Origin: Spirochaetia bacterium
GTDB taxonomy: Bacteria; Spirochaetota; Spirochaetia; UBA9216
Length of the DNA stretch: 64,000 nucleotides
Reading direction: 5' to 3'
NCBI GenBank assembly: GCA_963675665.1
Contig: OY776510.1
Span: 2,048,001 to 2,112,000, forward strand
Below the pieces are notes generated by a model. That model was not told where the DNA came from, searched no databases, and was given only the letters and a program-made list of their open reading frames with translations. Numbering within the stretch: position 1 is the first letter of the stretch; each line of letters opens with the position of its first letter. Of this stretch, positions 691 to 23,331 are shown piece by piece. A program made the position numbers and the translations under genes.

Positions 691-705
691 AATATTTTCC
701 TGTAT

Positions 706-2022
706 TTAATCGAAAAGATTCAGCTGCCGGTTATCATCATGTTTGTTGAAAGACGGCTTTGTTCGGGATTTCTTTTTTTCGGGAGATGCGAGTGGTTTTC
801 TTGAAGAATGTTCAGCATAGGAATCTCCGGGAACGGCTCTTCTCATGACTGTCCGGCCTCCCCACAGATGAGAGTTTTCCCATTCCCGGGAGATTAGCTT
901 GTCAACATCCGCCTGGGGTGAAGCTGTTTTTTCAAGCCAGCGGGTAAAACGGTCGAGTTTTTTCATTCCGTTGATTTTCTCCGTGTTGCCGGTTTTTGCA
1001 GTTTCAAGTGCACGCTTAACAACCGAGATGCTTTTATCATATACCTTCAGGGGGACCGGAGCAGGGTGTCCGTCTTTTCCCCCATGGGCAAATGAAAAAC
1101 GGGCGGGATCCGTAAAGCGGCTCGGCCCTCCGTAAATTACTTCGCTTACCAGCGCAAGGGACTGTACCGTACGCGGGCCTACACCCGGCATCAGAAGGGC
1201 TTCGCTGAAATTACTGAATTTCTCATCCCAGGCTGCGGCAAGGACCGCCCCGAGGCGTTTTGAAATCACGTCCTGTGGTTTTACTTCGTGATGAGAAGGG
1301 AGTATCAACCGGGGAGTCCTCATGAGCAAATCAACCTCGTGCTGTTGTCTGTCCGGATGTTCATTCATGAATTCAAGGATGCCTTCCCGGTTTCGGGCGG
1401 CCCGGCTGTCGCTGAGATTTATAAGATCTCCATCCTGAAACGGACCTACTACCGCAGTATGCGGATCGTCAAGGAATGATCGAAGGCCTTCAGATCGCCA
1501 GTGATAGCGCCTGGCCGTGCCTGTCTGCCGGTTCATTCCCTGCTGGATTACTGACCAGTTACCGTTTTCCGTTATCACAAAATTATGCAGATATATCTGA
1601 AAGCCGTCCTGAAGACAGGAGTTATCTATTTTTGCCGTAAGACGGCTTGCCCGGGTAAGATCGTCGCCGGAAAGACCTGTCTTCATTGAATATTCTATTA
1701 GTTCCCGGGGTGTCTGTCTGGAATATTTACCTCTCCCTCCGAAAACTGCGATCCCGAAATCTTTGCTTCTTGGATTTATTCCCCGTTGAATAGCTCTCAT
1801 GACCGAAGTCGTTATTCCTGATGAGTGCCAATCCATTCCAAGTACTGCTCCGAAAGCCTGAAACCAGTAAGGATCGGAAAGCCTTCGCAAGACTTCATCG
1901 GTTCCGCTGTCCATAATTACAGCCTCTATCATCGCTGTTCCGAGTTTCATCATCCTGTCGGCCAGCCATGAAGGAACTGTTCCGTAATGAAGAGGCAAAT
2001 CTGCGCTTCCGCTGCGTTTCAT
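706..2022 (-). CDS. DUF763 family protein
   Basis: N-terminus MKRSGSADLPLHYG, GMDWHSSGITT, QDGFQIYLH, WSVIQQGMN and FSFAHGGKDGHP are characteristic of DUF763. Confidence 0.85.
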   Translation of the reverse strand: MKRSGSADLPLHYGTVPSWLADRMMKLGTAMIEAVIMDSGTDEVLRRLSDPYWFQAFGAVLGMDWHSSGITTSVMRAIQRGINPRSKDFGIAVFGGRGKYSRQTPRELIEYSMKTGLSGDDLTRASRLTAKIDNSCLQDGFQIYLHNFVITENGNWSVIQQGMNRQTGTARRYHWRSEGLRSFLDDPHTAVVGPFQDGDLINLSDSRAARNREGILEFMNEHPDRQQHEVDLLMRTPRLILPSHHEVKPQDVISKRLGAVLAAAWDEKFSNFSEALLMPGVGPRTVQSLALVSEVIYGGPSRFTDPARFSFAHGGKDGHPAPVPLKVYDKSISVVKRALETAKTGNTEKINGMKKLDRFTRWLEKTASPQADVDKLISREWENSHLWGGRTVMRRAVPGDSYAEHSSRKPLASPEKKKSRTKPSFNKHDDNRQLNLFD

Positions 2023-2085
2023 CAGAGAATTATAATATTCTTTTATGAAAATTAACAGGCTGCAGTTTTCAAAAGTCCCCGTATC

Positions 2086-3903
2086 TTACTGATTTACAAA
2101 ATAGGCTGCGCCGACAGCCTGGGCAAACTGCGCAACAGTAAAATGCGGATCGACTTCGAGCTGTCTCATCAGCACTGTATTTGCAATTGTGGAATCCGCA
2201 ACCTCAAATCTAATATCCTTTTTAATTGCTGCAGCTCCTTCGCACATCAGTTTAAAGCATTTCTTCCTCTTTACAAGCCTGCCGAAGAGAACCCTCGAAT
2301 CGGCGAGCGGGTTGAGGATTTTCTTTGTTTCAAGCCATGTCACGGCAAGAAATTCACCAATCTCTCTCCATATTCGGGCGTTTACCGTATCATTTTCCCT
2401 TTCGGGCAGTTTCATCATATGTTCAAGAAAGGGTTTTCTCATGTCCTTTGGCTCGGTCGGAACATAGAAGCCCCGTTTACCGTCTGTTGTTTTTTCTGCA
2501 ACAAAACCGAGCTCTTTCAGTTCTTCGAGAAGTTCAGGCGCTTCGGTCGGAAAATATTTCATTGCAAGCCTGAAAACCCCGCTCTGGCTTGTGTATTTCT
2601 GTAAGGTGCCGGGCAGCCAGGTATTGAAATTGTTTATGCTTCTAAGATCGTCAGGTTCGAATTCCCTTTCGGTATAGCTGCCGAGATCGATGATATAGTT
2701 ATATACTTCAAGCGGAATGTCCGGAATCTTTCCGTTCTCTGTTACCCAGCCGGTTCCAAGTTCAGTCCCGAGTGTATGCGCAAACACACCGTTTTTTATC
2801 ATTTCCGGCTTGTCTGAAGCGGCAATCTCCACTGCAGCGGTAAAAGACGCCATCGGCCCGTCATTTATTATCAGAACCTTCCCGTCTTTTTTGATCAATT
2901 CATGAATTCTGTCGTTAAGGTTCGTAAGCTGCAGGAAATCAGTTTCATAATCAATCTCCGGGTTGTTTCTTATCCCGCGGGTTTTGTAAACCTCTCCGCC
3001 TACAACTTTGTTGCGAACAACAACATCCGGAAAGCACATTCCGACGCCGTCTATTTCTACCATACTGTACTGAAGCAGTTTTTCCACTTCTGAGCAGGTC
3101 TCAGTCATTAGTTTTTCTGTGGCAGTTATATCAAGAGCCTTCAGCATTTTTTCTTCAAGTTTGAATTTTTCAGCAGAATCAGGTGCTGCATCCAGCGACG
3201 CTTTCGCTCTCATAAGCCTGACTATAAGACAGATTGGCTCAACAAGCTGAACGGACGTTGTGAATTTGGCCGGAAACCAGTCATATTCCTTATAGCAGTT
3301 AATTTCTCCGTTTTCAACAAGCACGATTTTTATATCCGTTCCGCCGACGTCTATGCCGCAGAAAAGCTTTCCGTCCATGTTTTCGGTTGCCTTTTTATAA
3401 ATATCAAGATCAGAAGCCTGTTCGGCAGCTTTGGCTTCAGGAACCGGGACTTTGTCGGTAACGTGAACATGAAACCTGAACCCCCCGCTTTCAGGGCTTA
3501 GCGTATCAAGCATCCGGTCGATTACATTTACACATCTTCCGTAACCTTTGCGTTCGGACCGCGATTTGTCTATACCGAATACGGTATTAAGTCCCTTTGC
3601 CGATTCCGCCAGTTCACCGGAATTTTCATTGATATAAATATCCATTTTTTTGCCGCCCAGGCTTGAAAGAATGTTGTAGATCTCCGCCCAGAGGTATTCA
3701 TTAATAAATTTTATTTCATCCTGATCTTTTCCGGGTAACGGTATTCTGATCGGGAAGTATCGCTGCGCTTCGTTTTCAAGGAGGGTCAGAATACAATGAA
3801 GAGTTCGACTCTCGTTATCCGGCAGGCTTTGGAAATAATCATAAACGCTGTTTATATATACCGGTTGGCCGGATTTTGCTTTTGATAATAATTCTGATAT
3901 CAT
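2086..3903 (-). CDS. ROK/ASKHA-fold protein with ~180-aa N-terminal domain, function unknown
   Basis: GIDVGGTDIK phosphate-1 motif, INDG, TLGTELGTG. Lacks the CxCGxxGC zinc motif. Starts 1 nt after the activase stop. Confidence 0.6.
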   Translation of the reverse strand: MISELLSKAKSGQPVYINSVYDYFQSLPDNESRTLHCILTLLENEAQRYFPIRIPLPGKDQDEIKFINEYLWAEIYNILSSLGGKKMDIYINENSGELAESAKGLNTVFGIDKSRSERKGYGRCVNVIDRMLDTLSPESGGFRFHVHVTDKVPVPEAKAAEQASDLDIYKKATENMDGKLFCGIDVGGTDIKIVLVENGEINCYKEYDWFPAKFTTSVQLVEPICLIVRLMRAKASLDAAPDSAEKFKLEEKMLKALDITATEKLMTETCSEVEKLLQYSMVEIDGVGMCFPDVVVRNKVVGGEVYKTRGIRNNPEIDYETDFLQLTNLNDRIHELIKKDGKVLIINDGPMASFTAAVEIAASDKPEMIKNGVFAHTLGTELGTGWVTENGKIPDIPLEVYNYIIDLGSYTEREFEPDDLRSINNFNTWLPGTLQKYTSQSGVFRLAMKYFPTEAPELLEELKELGFVAEKTTDGKRGFYVPTEPKDMRKPFLEHMMKLPERENDTVNARIWREIGEFLAVTWLETKKILNPLADSRVLFGRLVKRKKCFKLMCEGAAAIKKDIRFEVADSTIANTVLMRQLEVDPHFTVAQFAQAVGAAYFVNQ

Positions 3904-3904
3904 T

Positions 3905-4867
3905 TTAATATTCTCCTTTCGTTGTTTCTATTGCTGTTTCTATCATTGAGACGTTTGTTTCTCTTTTTGTTTTAATCCCCTGTTCCGATAAAATTGCGTA
4001 AAACCCGTCAAGTTCGTCCTCTGTGTAGGGTTTCATTACTGTCAGATACTCATGTTCTTTTCCCATAAGTCTGTACTTGTTTTCCGCCAGCGGGTTAAAA
4101 TTTATTAATTCAATCTCTGTTTCAGGCGAAAGGTTGTAAACAAATGATCCGATAGCTTTCAGGTTATCAGCGGTTGTTGTTATCTCAGGGATAAGCGGAA
4201 TTCTGACCAGCATGTTCTGTTTGGTTTCTATCAGTTTTTTAAAATTTGAATGAATCAGTTGGTTTCCGGTTCCCGTATATTCCCTGTGCTTTTCGTCGTT
4301 AAAAATTTTCAGATCGACGATGAAAAGATCCACCAGTCCAAAAAATGATTCAAATATTTCTTCTTTTGCGTACATTGAGGTTTCTATGGCAGTTTGAACG
4401 CCGGCGTCTTTACATTTTTTCAGAACAGCTTTACTGAATTCATGCTGCAGCATCGGGTCGCCGCCGGACAGGGTAATGCCTCCGCCGGATTTCTCATAGA
4501 AAAGCCTGTCCTGAAGCAGTTCTTTGACTGCTTCGTCTACGTCGATCTCCCAGCCGTCAAATGAAAGAGCATTTGTCGGGCAGATTTCTGTGCAGATGCC
4601 GCAATTATTGCATTTCTGATAATCAATAATAATTGAAGATTCACCCGGTTTCCCACGCGAAAGGGCGTTTTCCGGGCATGCTTCAATACAGCTTCCGCAG
4701 CCTATGCACTTGCTGTTGAAAAACCACAGGTTCATGCTGCTGCTTATTCCTTCGGGATTGTGGCACCATATGCAGTTTAACGGGCAGCCTTTCAGAAAAA
4801 GTGTTGTGCGGATGCCCGGGCCGTCATGGATTGCGAATTTTTTTATATCGAAGATTCTCCCTTTCAC
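3905..4867 (-). CDS. Glycyl-radical enzyme activating enzyme (radical SAM, ferredoxin insert)
   Basis: HDGPGIRT..FLKGCPLNCIWCHNPE, two CxxCxxCxxxCP clusters, GGGITLSGG. Overlaps the GRE stop (GTGA). Confidence 0.95.
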   Translation of the reverse strand: MKGRIFDIKKFAIHDGPGIRTTLFLKGCPLNCIWCHNPEGISSSMNLWFFNSKCIGCGSCIEACPENALSRGKPGESSIIIDYQKCNNCGICTEICPTNALSFDGWEIDVDEAVKELLQDRLFYEKSGGGITLSGGDPMLQHEFSKAVLKKCKDAGVQTAIETSMYAKEEIFESFFGLVDLFIVDLKIFNDEKHREYTGTGNQLIHSNFKKLIETKQNMLVRIPLIPEITTTADNLKAIGSFVYNLSPETEIELINFNPLAENKYRLMGKEHEYLTVMKPYTEDELDGFYAILSEQGIKTKRETNVSMIETAIETTKGEY

Positions 4868-7242
4868 ATTCCGCTCCCGTAGCTTGTTCTTGCTATAATT
4901 TCTTCCTGCAAATCGGTTGCCAGTTCGGTGAAATATGCTGTATAACCGGCAACTCTTACGGTAAGGCCCGCGTGTTTTTCAGGTTCCCGTCTGGCTTCTA
5001 TAAGATCCTCTTTTTTCAGGACATTGAACTGGATATGGTTAATTTTAAGATCTACAAATGTTCTGAGAAATGCGGAGAATTTTTTTATACCTTCAGTGGT
5101 ATTAAAGAAATCCGAGGTGAATTTCATATTTAAAAGGGTCCCGTTGCTGCCTATTTTTGAGTTAATCCTTGAAACTGATTTTAAAAGAGCAGTAGGCCCG
5201 GATGTGTCGCGTCCGTACATTGCCGACATTCCGCCGTCTGCAAGAGGGTCCTGTGCCTTGCGTCCGTCCGCCGACGCTCCTACATTGTGGCCCATGGGTA
5301 TATGCGCTGAAACAGTGTATAAGCCGGTATGATAGGGGCCGCCCCTCATGTTTGTGTATTCTTTCAGCTGGTTTGCAAAAAACTCAATCCACTGATTTCC
5401 AAGATTGTCTACCCATTCTACATCATTGCCGTATTTGGGAATTCTGTTGAGAACAAGCTGCCGTAAAGGCTCCATTCCCCTCCAGTTTGATTTCAGGGCG
5501 GTCAGAAGCGCATCGGCGGAGATTGTTTTATCTTCAAAAACCATTTTCTTTATTACCGCCAGGCTGTCGGCAAGATTTGCCACCTGAATAGCCTGTATTC
5601 CGGAATAATTATAGTATGCTCCGCCGGCGGTTACATCTATGCCTTTTTCAAGGCAGTTGTCTATTACGCCCGACAGGAATGCCGACGGCAGAACCTCCGC
5701 GTGAGTGGTTTCGACCACCTCGCAGCATTTTATCATTCTGTCAATATAGTGTTTCAGCTGCTTTGCAAAAGCTTCTTCAAGTTCGCTGTATGTTGCGTAA
5801 TCTTCCAGAGTCCCGGTTTTCAGTCCCATCTGTTTCCCGGTAAGAAGACAGACGCCGTCAGTCAGCGTAAGCTCAAGTGCTTTCTGAAGATTGAACATAG
5901 CAGCGTCGCTCCATCCCAGATTGTTTCCGTGGGTAGTCAGTTCGACGCATCCTACTATAGCATAGTTTCTTGCGTCCGGTTCGCTGATTCCGACATTTCT
6001 TAATGCGGGAACTACGCCTTCATCGTTGAAAATTTGCGGCATGCCGCTTCCCAGGCCGATAACGCGGCTGCATTCGTTCACAAATTCGTCGCTTGAACCG
6101 CTGTAAAGACGCGCGGACAGGTTCGGCTGGGGCATAAGGATGTGGCTCTGGGCTTTAAGAAAAAGGTATGACAATTCATTTGTGGCGTCCCGGCCGTCCG
6201 CAGTCTGTCCGCCGCAGGCAATGTTGAAGCCGATTGGAAAGCCCGCAAAGTATTTTGCACTGTGTGAATTCCGCAGATATACAACCTGGTTGAATTTCAG
6301 CCACAGCGCTTCAATAAGTTCCAGCGCATCCTGTTCATTTAATCGTCCGGCTTCAATATCGCGTTTATAATATGGATAAAGGTATTGATCCGCTCTTCCG
6401 GGTGAAAACGAGGATGCATTGGATTCCATTTGAAGTATCACATATAGAAACCACAGCGACTGAAGGGCTTCATGAAAACTTTCCGCCGGTTTTTCAGTAA
6501 GCTTCAGACAGATTCGGCTGACTTCCATAAGGCTGGCGCTGTTTTCCGAGTTTTCCGGCGCTTCGGCCATCTGTGCGGCTAAATCCGCATATCGTTTTAT
6601 GAAATTTATTGAAGCATCCTCTGCAATGATCACACATTCGTAAAAAAGTTTGCGGCTGTCGGAGGTTTCGGCAAGCTTTTTTTCTGCTTCCGCTTTCAGC
6701 CCGAACGGACCGGTTTTCAGCCATTTCTCGGTATCCGGACAGATGTGCCCCTGGGCATGATCTTTTTGGTTAATTTTGGCTACCTTTACAATATCGTTGA
6801 TTTCATCGCCCCGCTTTTCCCTGATTACATCTTCCAGACATTTTCCTTTCCAGAAGGGGTAGATTTCATTTCTGAAAGCGCTGATGTCCTCTTTTCTGAC
6901 GTTAAATCTGTCCTGGGGCCGTGTAGGAAGAGTTTCTATCTCTTCGTTTACCCATGAACTGCCTGCTTCGGGGAAAACGACCCCTCCGCGTACTCCCGGA
7001 GTCCTGTTTCCTACAATCAGTTCAGGCGGATCAATTCTGATGGTCATTTGATTGAGAGAGGCAGCCAGACTTTTAGCTCTCTGAAGAGCTTTGGGATCCT
7101 TGCTGTTTGCCCTGTAGCAGTCAGTAATAATCCTCGCCTGTTCCAGCGACATATATCTGGGCTCGTTGAGCATGTTCTTTTTCAGTTTCCGGATTTTTGC
7201 GCTGCAGAAAAGATTGTCGTACCTGTTCTTTAAATTCTCCAT
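4864..7242 (-). CDS. Glycyl radical enzyme, PflD-like clade (not PFL)
   Basis: Gly loop VRVAGY, single-Cys loop VGCVE; PTRPQDRF, QMESNASS, SAKYFAGFP and PQPNL resemble E. coli PflD. Start placed at the ATG downstream of an AGGGG RBS. Confidence 0.93.
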   Translation of the reverse strand: MENLKNRYDNLFCSAKIRKLKKNMLNEPRYMSLEQARIITDCYRANSKDPKALQRAKSLAASLNQMTIRIDPPELIVGNRTPGVRGGVVFPEAGSSWVNEEIETLPTRPQDRFNVRKEDISAFRNEIYPFWKGKCLEDVIREKRGDEINDIVKVAKINQKDHAQGHICPDTEKWLKTGPFGLKAEAEKKLAETSDSRKLFYECVIIAEDASINFIKRYADLAAQMAEAPENSENSASLMEVSRICLKLTEKPAESFHEALQSLWFLYVILQMESNASSFSPGRADQYLYPYYKRDIEAGRLNEQDALELIEALWLKFNQVVYLRNSHSAKYFAGFPIGFNIACGGQTADGRDATNELSYLFLKAQSHILMPQPNLSARLYSGSSDEFVNECSRVIGLGSGMPQIFNDEGVVPALRNVGISEPDARNYAIVGCVELTTHGNNLGWSDAAMFNLQKALELTLTDGVCLLTGKQMGLKTGTLEDYATYSELEEAFAKQLKHYIDRMIKCCEVVETTHAEVLPSAFLSGVIDNCLEKGIDVTAGGAYYNYSGIQAIQVANLADSLAVIKKMVFEDKTISADALLTALKSNWRGMEPLRQLVLNRIPKYGNDVEWVDNLGNQWIEFFANQLKEYTNMRGGPYHTGLYTVSAHIPMGHNVGASADGRKAQDPLADGGMSAMYGRDTSGPTALLKSVSRINSKIGSNGTLLNMKFTSDFFNTTEGIKKFSAFLRTFVDLKINHIQFNVLKKEDLIEARREPEKHAGLTVRVAGYTAYFTELATDLQEEIIARTSYGSGM

Positions 7243-7309
7243 TGTAAACACCCCTGTCATCGTTTTATCGGTTGAAAGTATATTATTATGTCTGTTCGAG
7301 AGTGTATAA

Positions 7310-7346
7310 TATCACATATGACAAAAAAAAGCTATCATATGAAAGT
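7310..7346. promoter_or_regulatory. Operator copy 1 (two CATAYGA half-sites), putative DeoR site
   Basis: tatcacatatgacaaaaaaaagctatcatatgaaagt; a same-length imperfect copy lies at 7657-7693. Confidence 0.6.
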
Positions 7347-7455
7347 AATAAAAATGAGATCTATCAAAGTCGTATATAATCCTGAAGATGGGTATGTGAA
7401 TTATCAGCCCGGGAGTCACCGGAATATACTTTCTGACAATAAATCGCTTTTTGCC

Positions 7456-7483
7456 TTGACATATCGCCGGTATATGATATCAT
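7456..7483 (+). promoter_or_regulatory. Sigma-70-type promoter
   Basis: TTGACA-N16-TATCAT with extended TG. Confidence 0.5.
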
Positions 7484-7628
7484 TTCTATGTGTGCGGTCA
7501 CATTCTATGTCCGGCAGAGTAAGCAGGATGAATTTATTTGTAGAAGAATATGTGCGCGGTCACAACACGATCTTGTATATAATGCGAACGGGTTACCGAA
7601 TGGAGCACGGAAGAAAGTAAAATTAAAT

Positions 7629-7693
7629 TTGACAATAGCTATATGATGGTGTATTGTATCACATACGATAGTTTTTTACTATCATACGAAAGT
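7629..7693 (+). promoter_or_regulatory. Sigma-70 promoter of the transporter operon with overlapping operator copy 2
   Basis: TTGACA(7629)-N17-TATTGT(7652) running directly into tatcacatacgatagttttttactatcatacgaaagt. Confidence 0.65.
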
Positions 7694-7709
7694 CTTTTCG
7701 GGGAAATAT

Positions 7710-8192
7710 ATGATAATGAGCAGTGTTTTGAAAATCAGAGAGAATGAGCATGCGGAACTGCAGTTTAATTCATTTTCAAATGCCAAAGCCTATGAAATAG
7801 GATTAAGGCTGGTAGAGGTGGCCGGGCTTAACGGGTATCAGGTGACAATAGATATCTGTAAGCATGGACAGCAGATTTTTCATTATGCATGTGAAGGAAC
7901 TTCACGTGATAACGATCAATGGATTATCAGGAAAAACAAGGTTGTTGATTATTTTGGAAAGAGTTCAATTTATATAAAAGAAATGGTAAAAGAATCCGGG
8001 GTAACACTTGAAGAGCTCTTTTTTATAGACGGTATGAAATTTTCAGCATTCGGCGGAGCTTTTCCAATAATCATCAGGGATACCGGTGCTATCGGAACCG
8101 TTACTGTCAGCGGCCTGCCGGATGAGCAGGATCATGAACTTGTAGTGTCTGTCCTCAGGGAATTTGTTCTGCTGGAGACAGAAGAAAAATAG
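7710..8192 (+). CDS. UPF0303 / GlcG-HbpS-like heme-binding domain protein
   Basis: GTSRDNDQWIIRK and FGGAFPI...GTVTVSGLPDEQDHELV motifs. Confidence 0.85.
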   Translation: MIMSSVLKIRENEHAELQFNSFSNAKAYEIGLRLVEVAGLNGYQVTIDICKHGQQIFHYACEGTSRDNDQWIIRKNKVVDYFGKSSIYIKEMVKESGVTLEELFFIDGMKFSAFGGAFPIIIRDTGAIGTVTVSGLPDEQDHELVVSVLREFVLLETEEK

Positions 8193-8300
8193 ATTTTAAA
8201 ATCAAGGAGGTTGAATTATACTGTATTTAAAAGGGCTAAGTAAGTTGAGGTTTTTCAATATTAAAATTTTAAAATTGACAGTTTTGTAATGGAGGAAACA

Positions 8301-9260
8301 ATGAAAAAAAGACTGATTGCACTCGTATGTGTAATGTTATTGATCGGAACCATGGCTTTCGCCGGTGGTCAGCAGGAAGCCGCGGCCGGAGGAATGGCCA
8401 AGGTTGCATTTATTCCGGGAGAAATAGCTAACCCGTCACAGGCCTTTGCCGCAAAGATGTTTGAAAAGCATGCCGCTGAATACAATTTTGATGTAACAAT
8501 TCTTGACGGTAAGGGTGATGCGCAGGTCGAGACACAGTTAATAAATAATGCAGTAGCCCAGAAATTTGCTGCAATCTTTGTTAACCCGAACGATATCAAT
8601 GCCGTAATACCGGCCCTGATGAAAGCCAAGAAAGCCGGCGTTATTGTTGGAATGTTCTCTTCAGACGTTCCCCCGGAGAGCAGGGCTGCTGCCCGTGACT
8701 TCTTCGTAGGTGTTAATGATTTGATGGCCGGAGAAGCTGCAGGTCAGGCTTTCCTGAACAAGTTCCCCAACGGCGCCAAGGTTGTTGAGATAGGCGGACA
8801 GTCCGGACACGATGCCCAGATAAAGAGGCACGACGGTTTTAACAAGCAAATTGCCGGTTCCAAAATTGACGTAATAGACTATAAAGCCTGTCAGCAGTGG
8901 GATACAAACCAGGCCATGATGATAATGGAAGACATGATCGTTAAACACGGTGATACAATTGAAGGTATCTTCTGTCACTGGGACGGCGGAGCCACAGGTA
9001 TCCTTAATGCACTGGAAGCTGCAGGAATGGAAGGCAAGTTTATCGTCGGTGTAGACGGAAACAGGGCCGGGTTCGACCAGGTACGCAGCGGAAAGCAGAG
9101 TGTTACAATTATGCAGAACTTTGAAAATATGGCAATGATTGAAATGCAGACTGCAAGAACAATCCTGGACGGCGGAAAACCTGCAAATGATACAAACTTT
9201 ATCCCGCTGGATATCGTAGATCTTTCTAATATTGATACTTTCACTCCTCCTGAGTGGTAG
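8301..9260 (+). CDS. Sugar ABC transporter substrate-binding protein (RbsB-like)
   Basis: Signal peptide ending FAGGQQE, periplasmic binding protein type 1 motifs (RHDGF, VGVDG), GGAGG RBS. Confidence 0.92.
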   Translation: MKKRLIALVCVMLLIGTMAFAGGQQEAAAGGMAKVAFIPGEIANPSQAFAAKMFEKHAAEYNFDVTILDGKGDAQVETQLINNAVAQKFAAIFVNPNDINAVIPALMKAKKAGVIVGMFSSDVPPESRAAARDFFVGVNDLMAGEAAGQAFLNKFPNGAKVVEIGGQSGHDAQIKRHDGFNKQIAGSKIDVIDYKACQQWDTNQAMMIMEDMIVKHGDTIEGIFCHWDGGATGILNALEAAGMEGKFIVGVDGNRAGFDQVRSGKQSVTIMQNFENMAMIEMQTARTILDGGKPANDTNFIPLDIVDLSNIDTFTPPEW

Positions 9261-9287
9261 AATTGATTTTTTAAATCGAAATTATAA

Positions 9288-9323
9288 AAGCTCGTTTATA
9301 CATAACCATGTTTAAACGAGCTT
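9288..9323 (+). other. Intercistronic hairpin after binding-protein gene
   Basis: aagctcgttta...taaacgagctt inverted repeat. Confidence 0.55.
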
Positions 9324-9375
9324 GTTGCACATTTATTTAAAAAACAGAAGTATACAAAGAAAGAGGTTATTGGAA

Positions 9376-10884
9376 ATGAATGATAAGATGCCGGAATACA
9401 TTCTTTCAGTTGATAAAATAAATAAGTCTTTTCCCGGAGTTAAAGCTCTGGATGAGGTGTCAATCAATGTTCGACGCGGAACCGTCCACGGAATCGTCGG
9501 AGAGAACGGCGCCGGTAAATCCACACTGATGAAAATACTATCCGGGGTACATTTAAAGGATTCCGGGACCATTACTTTTGACGGTGAAGATATAAAAAGC
9601 ACGACCCCTCATAAATCCATGGCAATGGGCTTGAGTATTATTTATCAGGAGCTGAATATTGTAAACACCATGACTGTGGGTGAGAATATTTTTCTCGGCC
9701 GTTTTAGAGAGCTGAAGGGAATGAGGGGAACCCATGCCAAGGCAAGAGAATTGCTTGACAGTATTGGGTCTACCATTGATACAAACACCCTGGTCGGTGA
9801 TTTGAGCGTTTCGGAAAAGCAGATGGTTGAAATTGCGAAAGCTCTGTCATTTGATTCCAAGCTTATTATTATGGATGAACCGAGCAGCAGTTTGACAGAT
9901 GATGAAATGAAACATCTGGCTAAAATAATTCAGCAGCTTAAAGAGCGCGGTATATCAATTATTTATATAAGTCATAAACTGGATGAAATATTTAATTTCT
10001 GTGACATTGTTACGGTCATGCGCGACGGTAAAGTAATAGATACAAAGCCTATTAAAGAAATCACACGAAGTGAAATGATTGCCAAGATGGTAGGCCGTTC
10101 AATTGAAAATGAATTCCCCGAGCGTCCCAGAAACGTGGGTGATACGCTGATGGAAGTGCGCTCAATAAATACAAAGAAGCTGAAAAATGTTTCGTTTAAG
10201 CTTAAGAAGGGAGAAATCCTTGGATTCGTGGGCCTCGTAGGTGCGGGAAGAACCGAGATAGTCAGGGCCATATTCGGCGCCGACAAGACCTACGGTCATG
10301 AGATTCTCATTGAAGGGAAACCGGTAAAGATTAAAGAGCCGATGGATGCAAAGGCAGTCGGGATTTCGTTTGTGCCTGAAGACCGGAAACTGCAGGGCCT
10401 GATTCTTCCGTTCAGTGTTGAATCGAATATATCCATGGCCAGCCTGGACAGGATGACTACGAAAATGGGTTTTCTTAAAAAGGGAAATGAAAGGGAAATA
10501 GCCGAAAGGCAGATAAAGGCTCTGGATATTAAAACACCTTCCGCAAAAACAAGGGCTGAAAGCCTGTCGGGCGGAAACCAGCAGAAATGCATTGTAGGCC
10601 GATGGATGGAACTTGAGCCGCGTATCCTGGTTATGGATGAGCCCACAAGAGGTATTGATGTCGGGGCAAAGTATGAAATTTATTTATTAATGAAGAAGAT
10701 TGTTAACAAGGGCGGTTCTGTAATTCTTATTTCTTCAGAGCTTCCCGAAGTTCTCAATATGAGCAACCGGGTGCTTACCATCTGTGATGGAAGAATTACG
10801 GGCGAGTTTGATCCCGAGAAAGCTTCCACCCATGAAATTATGGAAAAAGCATTTGAGTTTATTGATAAAGGAACAGAATCATGA
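9376..10884 (+). CDS. Sugar ABC transporter ATP-binding protein (RbsA/MglA-like, two NBDs)
   Basis: GENGAGKST, GLVGAGRTE, LSGGNQQK, DEPTRGIDVGAK. Confidence 0.95.
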   Translation: MNDKMPEYILSVDKINKSFPGVKALDEVSINVRRGTVHGIVGENGAGKSTLMKILSGVHLKDSGTITFDGEDIKSTTPHKSMAMGLSIIYQELNIVNTMTVGENIFLGRFRELKGMRGTHAKARELLDSIGSTIDTNTLVGDLSVSEKQMVEIAKALSFDSKLIIMDEPSSSLTDDEMKHLAKIIQQLKERGISIIYISHKLDEIFNFCDIVTVMRDGKVIDTKPIKEITRSEMIAKMVGRSIENEFPERPRNVGDTLMEVRSINTKKLKNVSFKLKKGEILGFVGLVGAGRTEIVRAIFGADKTYGHEILIEGKPVKIKEPMDAKAVGISFVPEDRKLQGLILPFSVESNISMASLDRMTTKMGFLKKGNEREIAERQIKALDIKTPSAKTRAESLSGGNQQKCIVGRWMELEPRILVMDEPTRGIDVGAKYEIYLLMKKIVNKGGSVILISSELPEVLNMSNRVLTICDGRITGEFDPEKASTHEIMEKAFEFIDKGTES

Positions 10885-11888
10885 GCGAACAAAAAATGTC
10901 AGGGAAAACAATTACAATGGATAGCGCAAAGATTAGAGGAGCCGTTGCAGAGTTTTCAAAGGAATATATGGTACTGTTCGCTATTGCCATTCTTTCGATT
11001 GTAACAATAATTGTTGAACCGAAATTTGCAACCATAGCAAATATGACCAATATCATGCGTCAGTTCGGACCTCTGATTATGGTCTGTCTGGGTATGACCT
11101 TCGTTATCATTGGAGGGTTTATCGACCTGTCTGTTTCAGGCACTATCCCGCTGGTTGTTGTTATAACCCATTCTTTAATTGAACCCCTGGGAATGGTTCC
11201 CGCATTGATAATCGGACTTATAGCCGGAGCGGTATGCGGTTTTATAAACAGTGTACTTATTCTTGTCAGCGGTGCTATAACCCAGGCTGAGGCATTGTTT
11301 ATTACCTACGGTACGATGGTAGTATTCGGAGGGCTGGCAATGCTGTATACCGGAGGGGTAACCCACTATCTGACTTACATGGAAGCGGATTATTCATTGT
11401 TTACGGTAATCGGATCCGGCACAGTTGGAATGTTTTCAGTATCGTTTCTTATTTTTCTTTTTGTCTTTGCAATTCTTTATATTTTTCAAAATAAAACTTA
11501 TCTGGGTCGTACTATCAACCTGATCGGCGGAAATAAAACTGCGGCCAGGCTTGCCGGAATTCCTATAAAGAAAGGCATAATCGCGATGTTCACCATAAAC
11601 GGTTTTATGGCCGGATTAAGCGGAATTATTCTTTTTTCAAGAGTCACGCAGGCTTCTCCGACGTTGGGAAAGGGGTATGAAACCCAGGCTATCCTGGCTG
11701 TTGTAGTTGGAGGAACCTCCCTGCTTGGAGGAAAAGGAAGCGTAATCCGTACCGTTATCGGTACCTTGCTTGTAATCCTTTTAGGCAATTGTTTGAACCT
11801 GCTGGGAGTTGATGTTTATATGCAGTATGTCATGAGAGGACTTGTATTGGTTGCAGCTATCTGGCTTGATACCAAAAGGCAGCACTAG
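10881..11888 (+). CDS. Sugar ABC transporter permease
   Basis: GFIDLS, IGGNKTAARLAGI and AVVVGGTSLLGGKG CUT2 permease motifs. Confidence 0.93.
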   Translation: MSEQKMSGKTITMDSAKIRGAVAEFSKEYMVLFAIAILSIVTIIVEPKFATIANMTNIMRQFGPLIMVCLGMTFVIIGGFIDLSVSGTIPLVVVITHSLIEPLGMVPALIIGLIAGAVCGFINSVLILVSGAITQAEALFITYGTMVVFGGLAMLYTGGVTHYLTYMEADYSLFTVIGSGTVGMFSVSFLIFLFVFAILYIFQNKTYLGRTINLIGGNKTAARLAGIPIKKGIIAMFTINGFMAGLSGIILFSRVTQASPTLGKGYETQAILAVVVGGTSLLGGKGSVIRTVIGTLLVILLGNCLNLLGVDVYMQYVMRGLVLVAAIWLDTKRQH

Positions 11889-11900
11889 GAGGAGACTGTA

Positions 11901-12869
11901 ATGAGAAATTTTTCTAAAGGTAAGATAATTATAAAAAACCTGACAAGGCAGAAGGCTGTCATGGCTATTCTGGCTATGTTTGTTCTTATGATGTTTTTTC
12001 CTACTTATTTTTTCACAAGTTATAATTTGCTTGATGTGCTGAATTCAGCATCCATATACATAGTTTTAGCTTTTGGAATTACACTGGTAATTATCGGGGA
12101 AGGCATAGATCTTTCCATAGGCGGCACATTGTGCCTCGGCGGAATTGTCGCTATCATGGCCATGAACGCAGGAATGCCTATCTGGCTTTCAATAATCTGT
12201 GCAGTGCTTGTAGGCGCTTTGATCGGGGCCGTAAACGGTTTTCTGGTGGTTTATCAGAAATGTGCACCCTTCATCATTACGCTCGGAATGGGTATGGTTC
12301 TGACCGGTGTTGCTCAGCAGCTGACTGATGCACACCCTATAACCCCGGATAATTACGAATTTATGATGATAGGTAACGGAACACTCTTTGGAGTTATTCC
12401 AAATTCGATAGTTATCATGCTGGTTGTTTTTGTTATTACGCATATTCTTCTCAGGTATACCGAGTTCGGAAGGAATATTTATGCCATAGGCGGAGATTAT
12501 GAGGTTGCCGAGTACTCAGGTATCAGTGTACGGAAAATACAGGCCGCAACCTATGTAATCTGCGGGGCTGCAGCAGCCTTTTCCGGTGTATTGCTGTCTT
12601 CAACACTGAATACCGGACACTCAATATACGGCGACAGAATACCGCTTGTCGTTATCAGTGCTGTTGTAGTCGGAGGTACTTCACTTGCCGGCGGTGTCGG
12701 AAGTGCACCGCTTGCCATGGTAGGATATCTTGTTTTCGGTGTTATGGAAAACTCAATGAACATGCTGCGGATAAGCCCTTATATCCAGGAAGTTATCAGG
12801 GGCATAGTAGTTGTAACCATCCTCTGCCTCGACAGTTACAGCAGAAAAAGAAAGAGGGAAGCTGTTTAA
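11901..12869 (+). CDS. Sugar ABC transporter permease
   Basis: GIDLSIG, FGRNIYAIGG, AVVVGGTSLAGG. Confidence 0.93.
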   Translation: MRNFSKGKIIIKNLTRQKAVMAILAMFVLMMFFPTYFFTSYNLLDVLNSASIYIVLAFGITLVIIGEGIDLSIGGTLCLGGIVAIMAMNAGMPIWLSIICAVLVGALIGAVNGFLVVYQKCAPFIITLGMGMVLTGVAQQLTDAHPITPDNYEFMMIGNGTLFGVIPNSIVIMLVVFVITHILLRYTEFGRNIYAIGGDYEVAEYSGISVRKIQAATYVICGAAAAFSGVLLSSTLNTGHSIYGDRIPLVVISAVVVGGTSLAGGVGSAPLAMVGYLVFGVMENSMNMLRISPYIQEVIRGIVVVTILCLDSYSRKRKREAV

Positions 12870-13165
12870 TGGTCAGGCATGTAGTAATGTTCTCTTTTAA
12901 AAAGGACGCTGAAGATGCGGAAATCAAGGAGGTTGATGCTTTATTTAAAGAGTTGCCTTCGGTTATTTCTGAGATTCAGAGTTTTGAATCGGGTGTGAAT
13001 ATCAGCCCCGAGAATCTTGATAAAGGTTTCACACATATATATTTATTGTCTTTTGCAGATGAGAAAGCTCGGGATATTTATCTGTATCATAAGACGCATC
13101 AGGCTTTTTCTGCAAAGGCAGGCAAGATATTTGATGATGTTATGGTAATGGATTATTTGGTATAA
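12869..13165 (+). CDS. Dabb family (stress-responsive A/B barrel) protein
   Basis: MVRHVVMFSFK...GVNISPENLDKGFTH...YLYHKTHQAF. Confidence 0.88.
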   Translation: MVRHVVMFSFKKDAEDAEIKEVDALFKELPSVISEIQSFESGVNISPENLDKGFTHIYLLSFADEKARDIYLYHKTHQAFSAKAGKIFDDVMVMDYLV

Positions 13166-13196
13166 TGTGTACGACTTTACAATTCGGGATTGATAA

Positions 13197-14156
13197 ATGA
13201 AAAAATATCTGTGCGGAGTTGATCTCGGCGGGACAAAACTCGCCGCAGGTCTTTTTCTGGACGACGGTACATTAATAGACAGGAGAACCGTTTTTGATCA
13301 TAAATGTCAGAGCTGCGACGGGATTGCCGAGAGTATTATTAATCTTGTGCGAGAACTTCTGAATGCAAATGATGTTGAAGATGAGTATCTGTATGGGATA
13401 GGAATAGGCGTTGCAGGGCATATTAATTCCAGAAAGGGATTGATAATTACATCAAGTAATTTCAAGGCCTGCTTTGATAATTATCCATTGAGAGAAAAGA
13501 TAGCAAGAAAGTTCAGCACAAGAGTCATTGTCGATAATGATGCCAACGCACAGGCTTACGGAGAATTTAAATTCGGCGCAGGTAAAAACTTTTCGGATAT
13601 TATTTTTATAACTGTAAGCACCGGTGTCGGTTGCGGAATTATAATTAACAAGCAGCTGGTCCGGGGAATGTCCGGAACCGCCGGCGAAATAGGGCATACC
13701 ATTGTTGACCCTCATTCCGATATACAGTGTTCATGTGGAAATTACGGATGCATAATGTCGATGTCCAGCGGCCAATACCTGCCCTCACTGTATCGGAAAT
13801 ACCTGAAACAGGGAATGGAATCCAGGCTTGGCCTTGATATTGATTCGGTTGATTCGCTTGACGGGTTGATGCTCAGGAATGGAATAAATCAGGGTGATGA
13901 AATCTGTATCAATGTTCTTCGGGATTCGGCTAATGCTATAGGAACCGGATTATATAATCTTTTTCAGGTTTTGAACCCGGAGATTTTTATTATCGGAGGC
14001 GGTCTGGTAAATATCGGGGAACAGTATATAGACCTGATTGAACAGAAGTATCTGTCATTGGTTAAGAAAATGATGTATGATAAAATTGAAATCAGGCCAT
14101 CATCTCTCGGTAAGGATGCCGGCTTGCTGGGCGCTGCTGCTTTAACACTGGAATAA
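13197..14156 (+). CDS. ROK family sugar kinase
   Basis: GVDLGGTK, DNDANA, STGVGCG, AGEIGH, CSCGNYGC. No N-terminal HTH. Confidence 0.92.
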   Translation: MKKYLCGVDLGGTKLAAGLFLDDGTLIDRRTVFDHKCQSCDGIAESIINLVRELLNANDVEDEYLYGIGIGVAGHINSRKGLIITSSNFKACFDNYPLREKIARKFSTRVIVDNDANAQAYGEFKFGAGKNFSDIIFITVSTGVGCGIIINKQLVRGMSGTAGEIGHTIVDPHSDIQCSCGNYGCIMSMSSGQYLPSLYRKYLKQGMESRLGLDIDSVDSLDGLMLRNGINQGDEICINVLRDSANAIGTGLYNLFQVLNPEIFIIGGGLVNIGEQYIDLIEQKYLSLVKKMMYDKIEIRPSSLGKDAGLLGAAALTLE

Positions 14157-14158
14157 AT

Positions 14159-14911
14159 ATGAATAAGAGACACAGACAAATATTAAGCATAATGTCGAAC
14201 GGGAAAAAAGTAGCTGTAAACAGGCTTTCCGAAAAGCTTGACGTATCACAGGCGACAATTCGACAGGATTTAACATTTCTTGAAGAGCAGGGCTTTCTGA
14301 AACGGGTGCATGGCGGCGCTGTGCTTGATGAAACAGATGACATCTCACACCGAATGGGAATTAACTATGAGCGGAAGCTTATGATCGCCAGAACAGCAGT
14401 AGGATTTGTGAAGGAAGGCGAAACAATTTATATTGAGTCCGGCTCGATAAACTCCCTTTTTGCACAGGAAATAATTAAAGAACGAAAAACTACTTCCATA
14501 ATAACGTCAAATGCGTTTATAGCCAGACAAATAGGGAAGAGCGCAGAAGGAAGGGTTATTCTGCTTGGGGGCATATACCAGCCGGAGAGCGAATGCCTGG
14601 TGGGCAACCTTGTAAAAGAATGTTTAAGTCATCTAAATTTCAGCAAGGCTTTCATAGGTGTTGACGGTTTTTCAAAAGAAACAGGCTTTACCGGTAGAGA
14701 TATGATGCGTGCGGATATAAACTCTGAAATTATCAGAAGAAGTCCCCAGTCTTTTGTTATGACAGACTCTTCCAAGTTCGGAAAAATTGCAATGTCAAAA
14801 TATTTTGACGCAAAGGATATCGATTATCTGATAACAGATAAAGATATTCCGGAAGAATATATAACATTCTTTAAAAATGAGAATGTTGAAGTTATCATTC
14901 CCGAAGGTTAA
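14159..14911 (+). CDS. DeoR/GlpR family transcriptional regulator
   Basis: VSQATIRQDLTFLEEQGFLKRVHGGA HTH; DSSKFG in the C-terminal sensor domain. Confidence 0.93.
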   Translation: MNKRHRQILSIMSNGKKVAVNRLSEKLDVSQATIRQDLTFLEEQGFLKRVHGGAVLDETDDISHRMGINYERKLMIARTAVGFVKEGETIYIESGSINSLFAQEIIKERKTTSIITSNAFIARQIGKSAEGRVILLGGIYQPESECLVGNLVKECLSHLNFSKAFIGVDGFSKETGFTGRDMMRADINSEIIRRSPQSFVMTDSSKFGKIAMSKYFDAKDIDYLITDKDIPEEYITFFKNENVEVIIPEG

Positions 14912-14931
14912 TTAAAGAATATTTTCAGTAT

Positions 14932-15909
14932 TCAGTACGCTACAATTGTTGTTCCGGCATTTCCGTCAAGTGCCGCTTCAAGGTTGTCAACGTCCGTGAT
15001 TATAACCTTGTGGTGCGGATTTGCCTGGATGAATTCTATAGAGGCCATTATTTTGGGGGCCATCGAGCCTACTCCGAAATGACCTTCGGTATAGTAATAC
15101 CGGGCTTCCGCAAGCGTTAACCGGGACAGTTTTACCTCGTCGGGTTTTCCGAAATTCAGACACACCTCAGGAACACTTGTAATGATTATGAAAGTTTTTG
15201 CCCCTACTGCAAGCGCAATTTTCATACTTGCAAGATCCTTGTCTATAACACAGTCGATACCTTCAAGGGTTTTGTCTTTCTCGTAAAATACCGGAATACC
15301 GCCGCCGCCGCCCGATATTACTACATAATTTCTTTCCAAAAGAAGTTTTATTGCGTCTTTTTCAACAATGTCGATTGGATAGGGCGAGGCCACAAATCTT
15401 CTCCAGCCGCGGCCGGAATCTTCCTTGAGCGTCCAGTCGGTTTCCCTGTTCAGCCTGGCAGCCTCTTCCTCGGTATAAAACGGACCGATTGGTTTTGTCG
15501 GGTTCTTCAGTGACGGATCGTTGTGATCAACAAGAATTTGTGTCGGTATGGTAACAACATTACGCCATACTCCGGCCCGGATCATCACATTCTGCAGACA
15601 CTGTTCTATCATATAACCCATTGATCCCTCGGTCATTGCATCGGCGACTCCAAGCGGTGTTTCAGGCACTGTGTCCTTTGCAGAATCAACCATAAGCATC
15701 AGGTTGCCTACCTGCGGGCCGTTTCCGTGTGTAAGTACGAAGTTGTATCCTTTTTCCAGAAGACTGACAACAGGTTTCATTGACGCCCTTGTGTTGGAAA
15801 ACTGCTGGTGGATATCTCCCTTTTCACCTTTTCTGATAATTGCGTTTCCTCCGAGTGCAATTACGGCGAGATCCTGTGAATCTTTTTTTTCAACCACTGC
15901 CTTTCTCAT
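14932..15909 (-). CDS. arcC: Carbamate kinase
   Basis: IALGGNAI, THGNGPQVG, PTKPIGPFY, GWRRFVASP, VIDKDLAS, GSMAPK. Start moved to the ATG after the GGAGG RBS. Confidence 0.93.
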   Translation of the reverse strand: MRKAVVEKKDSQDLAVIALGGNAIIRKGEKGDIHQQFSNTRASMKPVVSLLEKGYNFVLTHGNGPQVGNLMLMVDSAKDTVPETPLGVADAMTEGSMGYMIEQCLQNVMIRAGVWRNVVTIPTQILVDHNDPSLKNPTKPIGPFYTEEEAARLNRETDWTLKEDSGRGWRRFVASPYPIDIVEKDAIKLLLERNYVVISGGGGGIPVFYEKDKTLEGIDCVIDKDLASMKIALAVGAKTFIIITSVPEVCLNFGKPDEVKLSRLTLAEARYYYTEGHFGVGSMAPKIMASIEFIQANPHHKVIITDVDNLEAALDGNAGTTIVAY

Positions 15910-16027
15910 TATCCCTCCAAAAAAGCCGCCAAGGCTGACGGTTAATGGTATTATAAGGCCGTCCAGGCTAATCCGCAACTTTAATTAATTGGCTTGACTT
16001 CATTCTTCATAAGCATGAAAATAGCCT

Positions 16028-16183
16028 ATGGATATGAAAATGGCGCTGAATCTGTTTCTTGTTATTGGAGCAATACTTGTCTGTACTGCAGTCGTTGTTA
16101 TGGGGATAATGATCTACCGTTATGTTACCGGTATGAGGGCTCAGGGCTTTTTCGGCGGAAAGAAGAAGGATGAACAGGAGTAA
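16028..16183 (+). CDS. Small single-pass membrane protein (51 aa)
   Basis: Manual translation MDMKMALNLFLVIGAILVCTAVVVMGIMIYRYVTGMRAQGFFGGKKKDEQE; below the ORF-track cutoff. Confidence 0.6.
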   Translation: MDMKMALNLFLVIGAILVCTAVVVMGIMIYRYVTGMRAQGFFGGKKKDEQE

Positions 16184-16260
16184 CCGAATCTGGTGGGGAA
16201 CTTTTGCAGTATTTGTAATTGTTCTGCTTATTCTTCGTTTTTGTCAGTAAGGAAGTAATA

Positions 16261-19854: not shown

Positions 19855-19945
19855 AAGCCATTTAAGCCGGGAATTTGCAAAAGTTGACAAAATAATTCAA
19901 TACGGCACCATTTTTTCAAGAGATAATCATAGTACAAAATTAAAA

Positions 19946-20082
19946 CAGCATAATTAAGAGGGAAGCGGAGTGAAAATCTCCCACGAGCGCGTCACTGTAA
20001 AGGGTAAGTTAAAGCTGTCCAAAGTCAGGTCACTCTTATTTTGCTGAATGTCATACTCGAACTCGCGAACAGGGAGAGTTGA
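19946..20082 (+). ncRNA. Cobalamin riboswitch (short, class-II-like)
   Basis: AGAGGGAA, T-loop P4 GGAG-UGAAAAU-CUCC, CACGAGCGCGUCACUGUAA, B12-box-like AAGUCAGG, closing stem cagca..aagag/ctctt..tgctg, P13 aactc/gagtt whose GCG loop can kiss L5 CGC. Confidence 0.85.
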
Positions 20083-20098
20083 AGGAGAGATGGAACGT

Positions 20099-20734: not shown

Positions 20735-20760
20735 TACAAAATAGTCGGATTCAGACAGAT

Positions 20761-23329: not shown

Positions 23330-23331
23330 AA

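Follow-up and report, generated by a model that had tools for sequence, protein, structure and literature searches.

What does a PflD-like glycyl radical enzyme (GRE) act on when its gene lies beside an ABC importer and sugar kinases rather than a phosphotransferase system (PTS), and what is the role of the 605-residue protein encoded next to it? These questions are raised by a locus at positions 2086 to 14911 of a 64,000-nt stretch of DNA (here called the window) from a Spirochaetia bacterium (assembly GCA_963675665.1, contig OY776510.1, positions 2,048,001 to 2,112,000 of the forward strand). 1,5-Anhydroglucitol, 1,5-anhydromannitol, and 1,5-anhydrofructose are common metabolites derived from starch and glycogen, and to our knowledge the anaerobic breakdown of 1,5-anhydro-sugars was not explained until 2024, and then solely for the Escherichia coli system that depends on a PTS and on fructose-6-phosphate aldolase (Fsa), which Ma et al. 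(J Am Chem Soc, 2024) reportedly described as “anhydroglycolysis.” The locus studied here most likely lets an anaerobe import anhydro-sugars, phosphorylate them via kinases, and open the ring with oxygen-sensitive radical enzymes. It probably represents a PTS-free anhydroglycolysis that acts on the same substrate class as PflD or on a nearly identical one, and in which the 605-residue protein, named X605 here, is the substrate kinase and not a downstream enzyme. An initial annotation of the window had described a glycyl radical sugar locus that does not depend on a PTS and is related to the PflD and YbiW pathways of E. coli; this description held, and the interpretation as a whole was partly supported.

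As set out in two published accounts, the ring C-O bond is broken by YbiW in 1,5-anhydroglucitol-6-phosphate and by PflD in 1,5-anhydromannitol-6-phosphate, the product of both enzymes is 1-deoxyfructose-6-phosphate, an aldolase subsequently splits this product, and the 6-phosphates are made in E. coli by the PTS (PMC13450708, PMC12441222). The former account further indicates that the characterized PflD and YbiW enzymes need 6-phosphates (PMC13450708). In the E. coli K-12 record, frwCB-pflDC-frwD lies beside ptsA-fsaB-gldA, and ybiU-ybiV-ybiW-ybiY lies beside fsaA.

Glycyl radical enzymes and their conserved partners

The GRE encoded within the window, GRE1 (4864..7260, minus strand; 798 residues; PF02901, 694 bits; PF01228, 94 bits), is a predicted 1,5-anhydrohexitol-phosphate C-O lyase. 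The label “PflD-like” given to it initially was borne out by its nearest solved structures, which were PflD (8yjo, 637 bits; 8id0, 620 bits), followed by glycerol dehydratase (577 bits) and YbiW (445 bits). The glycyl radical motif R-V-A-G772-Y and the Cys-x-Glu motif G-C438-V-E440 were invariant in 20 aligned GRE homologs, and GRE1 kept most PflD-type motifs; the part played by the Cys loop's CXE motif is described in PMC13450708. GRE1 was 41% identical to E. coli PflD and 35% identical to YbiW. In a tree of 47 GREs, which comprised the enzymes of related loci, ten paralogs from the bacterium's own genome, and E. coli PflD and YbiW, GRE1 and 25 other sequences formed a 26-row clade that was sister to the PflD clade (SH-aLRT, 99 to 100; branches, 0.62 to 0.69). 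E. coli PflD was joined in the PflD clade by two enzymes, from the betaproteobacterial loci L012 and L040, that were 69 to 70% identical to it; the L040 enzyme passed the PflD equivalog model NF007437 with 1360.5 bits (cut-off, 1109). A sample of 301 genomes from the phylum contained a third subclade, which was 46 to 47% identical to the GRE1 and PflD clades (45 to 47% to GRE1 itself) and had the gene order GRE-activase-ROK. A comparison of the clades for phosphate-binding residues yielded the conserved basic residues R91, R289, R667, and K713, which were common to other GRE paralogs and were therefore rejected as nondiscriminating.

All of the genes named in the initial annotation were found, where it had placed them, in the open reading frame listing and family scans. 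The GRE activase gene (3905..4867, minus strand), encoding a radical SAM protein with a ferredoxin-like insert (TIGR02494, 333 bits against a cut-off of 174; Radical_SAM and Fer4 domains), lies next to the GRE1 gene and is followed by the X605 gene (2086..3903, minus strand). A gap of 449 nt separates the GRE1 gene from the divergent, plus-strand arm. This arm starts with an HbpS-like gene of the GlcG family (DUF336; 7710..8192; PF03928, 95.7 bits; NF002696, 158 bits against a cut-off of 146) and continues with the CUT2 ABC importer genes, which encode a substrate-binding protein (8289..9260; Peripla_BP_4, 167.5 bits) whose best solved relatives were ribose-binding proteins at no more than 85 bits, an ATPase with tandem ATP-binding domains identified by family scans (9322..10884), and two permeases with BPD_transp_2 domains (10881..11888 and 11901..12869). 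A gene for a Dabb (stress-responsive alpha/beta barrel) protein (12869..13165; PF07876, 83.3 bits), a canonical ROK sugar kinase gene (13197..14156; PF00480, 219.5 bits), and a DeoR-family regulator gene (14159..14911; HTH_DeoR and DeoRC domains) complete the arm. The ROK kinase, a predicted 1,5-anhydroglucitol kinase that would feed a YbiW-type enzyme, scored 217 bits with TIGR00744, under the cut-off of 260; D9, D115, E164, H167, C178, C180, and C185 were invariant, and its zinc motif was intact.

This divergent layout was as first described, but the locus proved not to be complete within the window. When neighbor genes from related loci were searched by tblastn against the whole host genome (one 5.15-Mb contig, 96% complete), four more linked genes were found 2.3 to 7.5 kb to the left of the window start: an RmlD-like gene, a shikimate-dehydrogenase (SDH)-like gene, a second DeoR gene (DeoR2) whose product was 49% identical to the DeoR protein of the window, and, at 2.3 kb and beside this paralog, a second GRE gene. 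The second GRE scored 936 bits (935.6) against the E. coli YbiW structure 8id7, was 54% identical to E. coli YbiW over 802 residues, and fell inside the YbiW clade of the GRE tree (SH-aLRT, 97). By these sequence comparisons it is a YbiW ortholog, of the predicted 1,5-anhydroglucitol-6-phosphate C-O lyase type. Between the X605 gene and the YbiW-type gene, 4.35 kb (L041:11772-13679 together with window positions 1 to 2022) carries a DUF3795 gene, an IS110 transposase gene, and, at the right end, an ECF sigma factor gene (1-690, minus strand) and a DUF763 gene (706-2022, minus strand). Since X605 and YbiW-type genes are adjacent in the closest relatives, being only 78 nt apart in the closest, L004, the four intervening genes were read as an insertion and not as part of the system.

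A genome scan for X605 yielded 38 loci, from metagenome-assembled genomes (MAGs) labelled Spirochaetota, Bacillota, Planctomycetota, and Betaproteobacteria. A GRE of the PflD superclade was encoded in 27 of the 28 X605 loci that had at least 3.4 kb of upstream sequence, the exception being L027, and at least three of the four ABC components (at least 50% identity) were present in 14 of the 17 loci whose flanks both reached 8 kb or more, so that the co-conservation of the two arms, on which the initial annotation had depended, was upheld. The HbpS-like gene was present in 9 and the Dabb gene in 3 of the 38 related loci. E. coli FrwB, FrwC, PtsA, FsaB, and GldA used as queries gave no match in any of the 38 loci, and FrwB and FrwC gave none in the host genome at an E value of 1e-5 or better. 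The loci L012 and L040, which contain true PflD equivalogs, had the same ABC, X605, SDH-like, and HbpS-like partners and no other kinase; identities to the window proteins were 66 to 67% for the binding protein, 71 to 72% for the ATPase, 54 to 55% for X605, and 63 to 64% for the reductase. The four betaproteobacterial loci L012, L020, L021 (which starts inside X605), and L040 all carried a homolog of YbiU (DUF1479) with 43 to 45% identity. Furthermore, the canonical ROK kinase tracked the YbiW-type enzyme: among the 17 long-flank loci, 5 had both genes, 1 had only the YbiW-type GRE gene, 2 had only the ROK gene, and 9 had neither.

X605 and the putative kinase slot

X605 belongs to an unannotated family and is predicted from its fold and invariant residues to be an anhydro-sugar kinase. 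Its sequence matched no Pfam or NCBIfam family at an E value of 0.001 or better and no solved structure at an E value better than 0.36, and hhalign against ROK gave a probability of 62% over 69 columns. The AlphaFold model, built with 38 homologs, had a pLDDT of 88.2 and a pTM of 0.90, and it matched ROK kinases with a Foldseek E value of 1e-10 and a probability of 1.00. For model residues 168 to 605, VIA Z scores were 20.9 (2hoe), 20.8 (2aa4), 20.3 (2yhw), and 19.8 (3vgk), with alignments of 278 to 294 residues and root mean square deviations of 2.8 to 3.5. The top 15 structural matches were all of the ROK family and comprised 14 kinases or putative kinases and one ROK repressor. The “ROK-fold” assignment made initially thus holds by predicted structure only, not by sequence models.

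Two domains were distinguished in the model, an N-terminal domain of residues ~1 to 155 (up to ~170 residues) and a ROK-type kinase domain of residues ~175 to 605, which carries ~130 residues of insertions relative to ROK proteins. The N-terminal 175 residues modelled alone had a pLDDT of 87.1; the best Z score of the N-terminal domain among 48,161 chains was 4.7, and Foldseek gave no match to it at an E value of 0.001 or better, a lack that does not show the fold to be new. D185-x-G-G-T189, N347-D348, G379-T380, and E399 were invariant in the 38 homologs. D185..T189, N347-D348, and E399 occur in the same order as D9..T13, N114-D115, and E164 of ROK kinases and, matched by motif order, may be equivalent to them. 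The ROK zinc motif (H...CxCGxxGC) was absent, and C549 was the one Cys invariant in the 38 homologs. Because sequence similarity to ROK proteins is near zero, it is from the fold and the motif order that we infer kinase activity.

A total of 1267 X605 homologs were found at an E value of 0.001 or better among 7999 scored candidates. The 120 homologs listed were nearly all ~600 to 635 residues long, with one 440-residue fragment, and were unnamed or “hypothetical”; one homolog cluster was named a predicted sugar kinase and had a precomputed PF00480 match. X605 was not found on the E. coli K-12 chromosome.

The initial annotation had placed X605 in the downstream slot of the pathway, after the GRE. 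Arguing against this are the ROK kinase fold, L012 and L040, in which X605 is the sole kinase, and the occupants of the same slot elsewhere. Genome G113 encodes a GRE1-clade enzyme (63% identical) with a PfkB kinase after it, in the X605 position; a GH4 glycosidase and an ABC system precede it, and X605 was not found in this 90%-complete genome. The occurrence of a PfkB kinase, a ROK kinase, or a PTS in this slot in other lineages points to X605 as an upstream substrate kinase. Moreover, since an ABC importer delivers unphosphorylated sugar and the characterized enzymes act on 6-phosphates, X605 is more likely the substrate kinase.

Proposed route and competing explanations

In the proposed route, the CUT2 ABC importer would take up unphosphorylated 1,5-anhydromannitol, 1,5-anhydroglucitol, and probably 1,5-anhydrofructose. 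The SDH-like enzyme, which is encoded outside the window here and usually directly after X605 in relatives, would reduce the ring ketone of anhydrofructose to give anhydromannitol, and X605 would make the 6-phosphate, replacing phosphorylation by the Frw PTS of E. coli. The activase would then install the glycyl radical on GRE1, which would open the ring by C-O cleavage to yield 1-deoxyfructose-6-phosphate. The canonical ROK kinase and the YbiW ortholog would form a parallel anhydroglucitol branch.

The SDH-like gene (at least 55% identity) was present in 24 of the 37 loci with at least 1 kb of downstream sequence. Its product passed the aroE domain model TIGR00507 (217 bits; cut-off, 200), and its best solved relative was the 5-ketofructose reductase 7cok (249 bits over the full length), the best AroE structure scoring 185 bits. 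The catalytic Lys and Asp were kept. The N-terminal H-S/T-x-S-P motif of AroE binds the shikimate carboxylate; it was absent from the SDH-like protein and from 7cok, with G-H-P-A-A-E-N-P in the former and P-C-A-D-N-P in the latter where the other AroE paralog of the genome has H-T-K-S-P. 5-Ketofructose reductases of the shikimate dehydrogenase family, including the Tatumella KFR, are reported in PMC7954740. As 1,5-anhydro-D-mannitol is 2-deoxy beta-D-fructopyranose, 1,5-anhydrofructose is the 2-deoxy analogue of 5-ketofructopyranose, and the stereochemistry of 5-ketofructose reductase applied to it would give anhydromannitol, the precursor of the PflD substrate. By this analogy, 1,5-anhydrofructose is hypothesized to be the substrate of the SDH-like enzyme.

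The step after ring opening may differ from that of E. coli, as no canonical Fsa was found. The initial annotation had noted no Fsa gene in the locus, and this extended to the whole genome, where the best TIGR00875 score was 36.5 bits against a cut-off of 245.95 (genome 96% complete). None of five other X605 genomes passed the cut-off (best scores, 213.9 and 133.3 bits), and the rest of the window (16 to 64 kb) contained no aldolase, GldA, or other related gene. A GldA homolog with 42% identity was found 2.8 Mb from the locus. Since no Fsa was found, an undiscovered enzyme should fill that role. Two divergent transaldolase-family proteins of the host, encoded at L001:1450-2526 (358 residues; G000:C1, 4.88 Mb) and L002:1276-2328 (350 residues; G000:C1, 0.50 Mb), fell well short of all the curated cut-offs for transaldolases and Fsa; proteins like them, of ~350 to 376 residues, were the only Fsa-model matches in two of the five other X605 genomes (G301 and G303) and a secondary match in another (G304). 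These proteins are candidates for the missing aldolase.

Several observations weigh against a PTS-free anhydroglycolysis of the PflD type with X605 as its substrate kinase. The near absence of sequence similarity between X605 and ROK proteins and the lack of the ROK zinc motif are among them, as is the second, canonical ROK kinase of the window, which could make X605 unnecessary as a kinase. With no canonical Fsa in the host or in the five other X605 genomes, the known means of using 1-deoxyfructose-6-phosphate is missing. According to PMC7954740, an SDH-like homolog from Clostridium pasteurianum was inactive on 5-ketofructose. Some of the 38 loci are kin and not independent, so the counts overstate independence, and in one of them, L027, X605 and the ABC importer were present, and neither the 10 kb upstream nor the 2 kb downstream contained a GRE. 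GRE1 itself was only 41% identical to PflD, lay outside the clade holding E. coli PflD, failed NF007437 (762.8 bits; cut-off, 1109), and differed from PflD in clade-conserved segments beside the Cys loop (LTTHGNNLGWSD versus LSIPGRTYGLHD in PflD). Since YbiW and PflD, whose substrates are C2 epimers, are about as distant from each other as GRE1 is from PflD, GRE1 may use another isomer.

The last of these points bears on a doubtful but possible alternative, in which the architecture is the same and the substrate is not: the GRE1 clade would open another 1,5-anhydrohexitol epimer or a phosphorylated anhydro-ketose, with X605 and the reductase tailored to it. The distinct and well-supported position of GRE1 as a sister clade below the PflD equivalog cut-off favors it, together with clade-specific changes that occur in the FPIGFN and GGMSAMYGRD segments as well as beside the Cys loop, and with the third GRE subclade, which has its own ROK kinase. 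On the other hand, the accessory proteins of the PflD-equivalog loci are as similar to those of the window as are those of many GRE1 loci, which suggests the same imported ligand, and no locus examined contained both a PflD-clade and a GRE1-clade enzyme, a pattern that fits replacement better than division of labor. The different substrate proposed in the initial annotation was accordingly weakened by the YbiW ortholog next door and by the same X605, ABC, and reductase partners serving PflD equivalogs, and it retained the support of a separate sister clade. It is unlikely, by comparison, that X605 acts after the GRE, for instance by phosphorylating the product of ring opening in a route without Fsa, or that it is a ROK-type regulator or an ATP-dependent GRE helper. 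In favor of such roles, a canonical ROK kinase is already encoded in the window, the genome without Fsa needs other downstream chemistry, and X605 has an extra ~170-residue domain without a matching fold; ROK repressors and ASKHA-fold activators also appear lower in its fold lists. X605 also sits directly after the activase, save in the betaproteobacterial loci L012, L020, and L040, where a GMC-family flavin oxidoreductase gene lies between the two. Against a downstream or regulatory role, X605 is the only kinase candidate beside the ABC importer in the PflD-equivalog loci and in most long-flank GRE1 loci, kinases or putative kinases make up all but one of its top 15 structural matches, its N-terminal domain gave no winged-helix match, and the loci carry DeoR, AraC, or LacI regulators of their own. 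The combination of X605 with an ABC importer and no GRE in L027, one of the contrary observations above, also argues against a helper specific to the radical enzyme.

Degradation of a cyclitol or of a hydroaromatic acid such as quinate or shikimate, with an SDH-family entry step and the GRE as a dehydratase, is very improbable. In its favor, the SDH-like gene is a core neighbor whose product passes TIGR00507, and some loci come from MAGs of Propionivibrio, a genus that includes a quinate/shikimate fermenter. This reading was rejected because the SDH-like protein is nearer to 5-ketofructose reductase (249 bits) than to AroE or YdiB (at most 185 bits) and lacks the H-S/T-x-S-P motif kept by the other AroE paralog of the genome; in addition, the importer is a sugar-type CUT2 system, and the GREs are relatives of PflD and YbiW, the Propionivibrio enzyme being 69% identical to E. 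coli PflD.

A PTS-free anhydroglycolysis with X605 as substrate kinase would be a variant of a known pathway, a second way, by transporter plus kinase, of feeding the same radical enzymes. More tentatively, the locus could encode a complete anaerobic 1,5-anhydro-D-fructose route with three new steps, namely, reduction to anhydromannitol by an SDH-family reductase, phosphorylation by the X605 kinase family, and Fsa-free use of 1-deoxyfructose-6-phosphate. If so, X605 would be the first of an unannotated but widespread kinase family for anhydro-sugars, marked by a new N-terminal domain, and a new aldolase or downstream reaction would remain to be found. The clade sister to PflD may also have its own substrate specificity. 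More than 1,200 “hypothetical” X605 homologs of ~600 residues gain a testable function from this work, and a sugar substrate is suggested for a subfamily of shikimate dehydrogenases. A literature search found no description of a glycyl radical anhydro-sugar cluster of the ABC/kinase type, the original 2024 study and its supplement being outside that search.

Regulatory elements, genomic context, and comparison with known systems

The duplicated element between the two arms, which the initial annotation had taken to tie them together, is real: two 45-nt copies were found, whereas none of 100 shuffled versions of the window yielded a match. Copy 1 (7302..7346, plus strand), with two TCA(C)ATATGA boxes, lies 42 to 86 nt upstream of the GRE1 start codon; copy 2 (7649..7693, plus strand) lies just upstream of the HbpS-like gene and overlaps the -10 hexamer of a promoter-like TTGACA-17-TATTGT sequence (7629-7657). 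The copies were identical at 32 of 45 positions, with differences mostly in the spacer, each contained two TCA(C)ATAYGA boxes 21 nt apart, and both were conserved in the homologous intergenic region of L004. The box CATAYGAAAG occurred 32 times in the genome, including 4 times in the 22.5-kb extended locus (0.14 expected); as the pattern was derived from two of these four sites, only the other two are independent. The four boxes occur in both 45-nt copies, upstream of the SDH-like gene, and in the space that separates DeoR2 from the YbiW-type gene. Only 6 of the 32 sites were intergenic, and 4 of those 6 were in the extended locus. The DeoR paralogs presumably bind these boxes, and the two would repress three transcription units through them.

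The two intergenic boxes outside the locus led to no aldolase. One precedes, by ~270 nt, an operon with genes for an aldehyde:ferredoxin oxidoreductase (AFOR), a 758-residue GRE, an activase, and a HAD phosphatase (L089:2224-7641; G000:C1, ~174 to 180 kb), and the other lies beside a group II intron reverse transcriptase/maturase gene (L090:4473-5828; G000:C1, ~826 to 828 kb).

A second kind of element, a LacI-type near-palindrome, also occurs in the GRE1/HbpS intergenic region, as TGTGTGCGGTCACA (7489..7502) and TGTGCGCGGTCACA (7551..7564). The element TGTGYGCGGTCACA has three copies in the 5.15-Mb genome, two of them in this region and the third (L088:7472; G000:C1:666471) flanked by a LacI-family gene and an operon for a GH4 glycosidase and a ROK kinase; one copy was present in the homologous L004 region. 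A GH4 gene also adjoins the gene for the GRE1-clade enzyme of G113 (L075). The LacI-type element and the GH4 genes may link the locus to a glycoside source of its substrate. A 110-codon open reading frame in the same region (7288-7620), without a family match, is probably not a gene, since it overlaps operator copy 1 and both LacI-type elements. Rfam gave no match at an E value of 0.1 or better in window positions 1 to 16500.

Farther along the window, at 18550-25188, a gene for a PocR-domain AraC regulator is followed by genes for a URO-D-family (MtaA-like) protein, a CobW GTPase, and a RACo-type corrinoid-protein reductive activator; this region looks like a corrinoid methyltransferase module unrelated to the sugar locus. 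The host genome contained ten PFL-like GRE paralogs, eight or more activase-like genes, and several dozen genes for CUT2 ABC ATPases, and the host is an unusually GRE-rich sugar specialist.

Compared with the E. coli frwCB-pflDC-frwD/ptsA-fsaB-gldA system, the locus shares a PflD-family GRE with an adjacent activase and the same predicted ring-opening C-O cleavage, and true PflD equivalogs (69 to 70% identity) occur with the partner genes found in the window. It differs in that no PTS, Fsa, or GldA gene was found in the window or in the 38 loci, a CUT2 ABC system serves for import, X605 is the protein to which phosphorylation is assigned, and there are, in addition, a 5-ketofructose-reductase-like enzyme, an HbpS-like protein, and a Dabb protein; GRE1, moreover, belongs to a sister clade, 41% identical, and is not a PflD equivalog. 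Compared with ybiU-ybiV-ybiW-ybiY/fsaA, the left-flank enzyme is 54% identical to YbiW and lies in its clade, and YbiU homologs are present in four betaproteobacterial loci, whereas a ROK kinase stands in for the PTS, neither FsaA nor an activase dedicated to this enzyme was found in the host genome, and the YbiW-type gene is linked to the reductase and RmlD-like genes and would be regulated by the DeoR paralog.

Residues 175 to 605 of X605 have the same fold as the ROK sugar kinases, such as the TM1224 GlcNAc kinase (2hoe), E. coli NanK (2aa4), and Streptomyces griseus GlkA (3vgk), and, judged by motif order, putative counterparts of their DxGxT motif, catalytic N-D pair, GT glycine loop, and Glu for sugar binding. 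Unlike these kinases, X605 has neither a PF00480 match nor the zinc motif, and it adds insertions and an N-terminal domain that matches no solved fold. Finally, the SDH-like enzyme shares the catalytic Lys and Asp with the 5-keto-D-fructose reductase 7cok, and both are without the shikimate-carboxylate motif; the substrate proposed for the SDH-like enzyme is 1,5-anhydrofructose.

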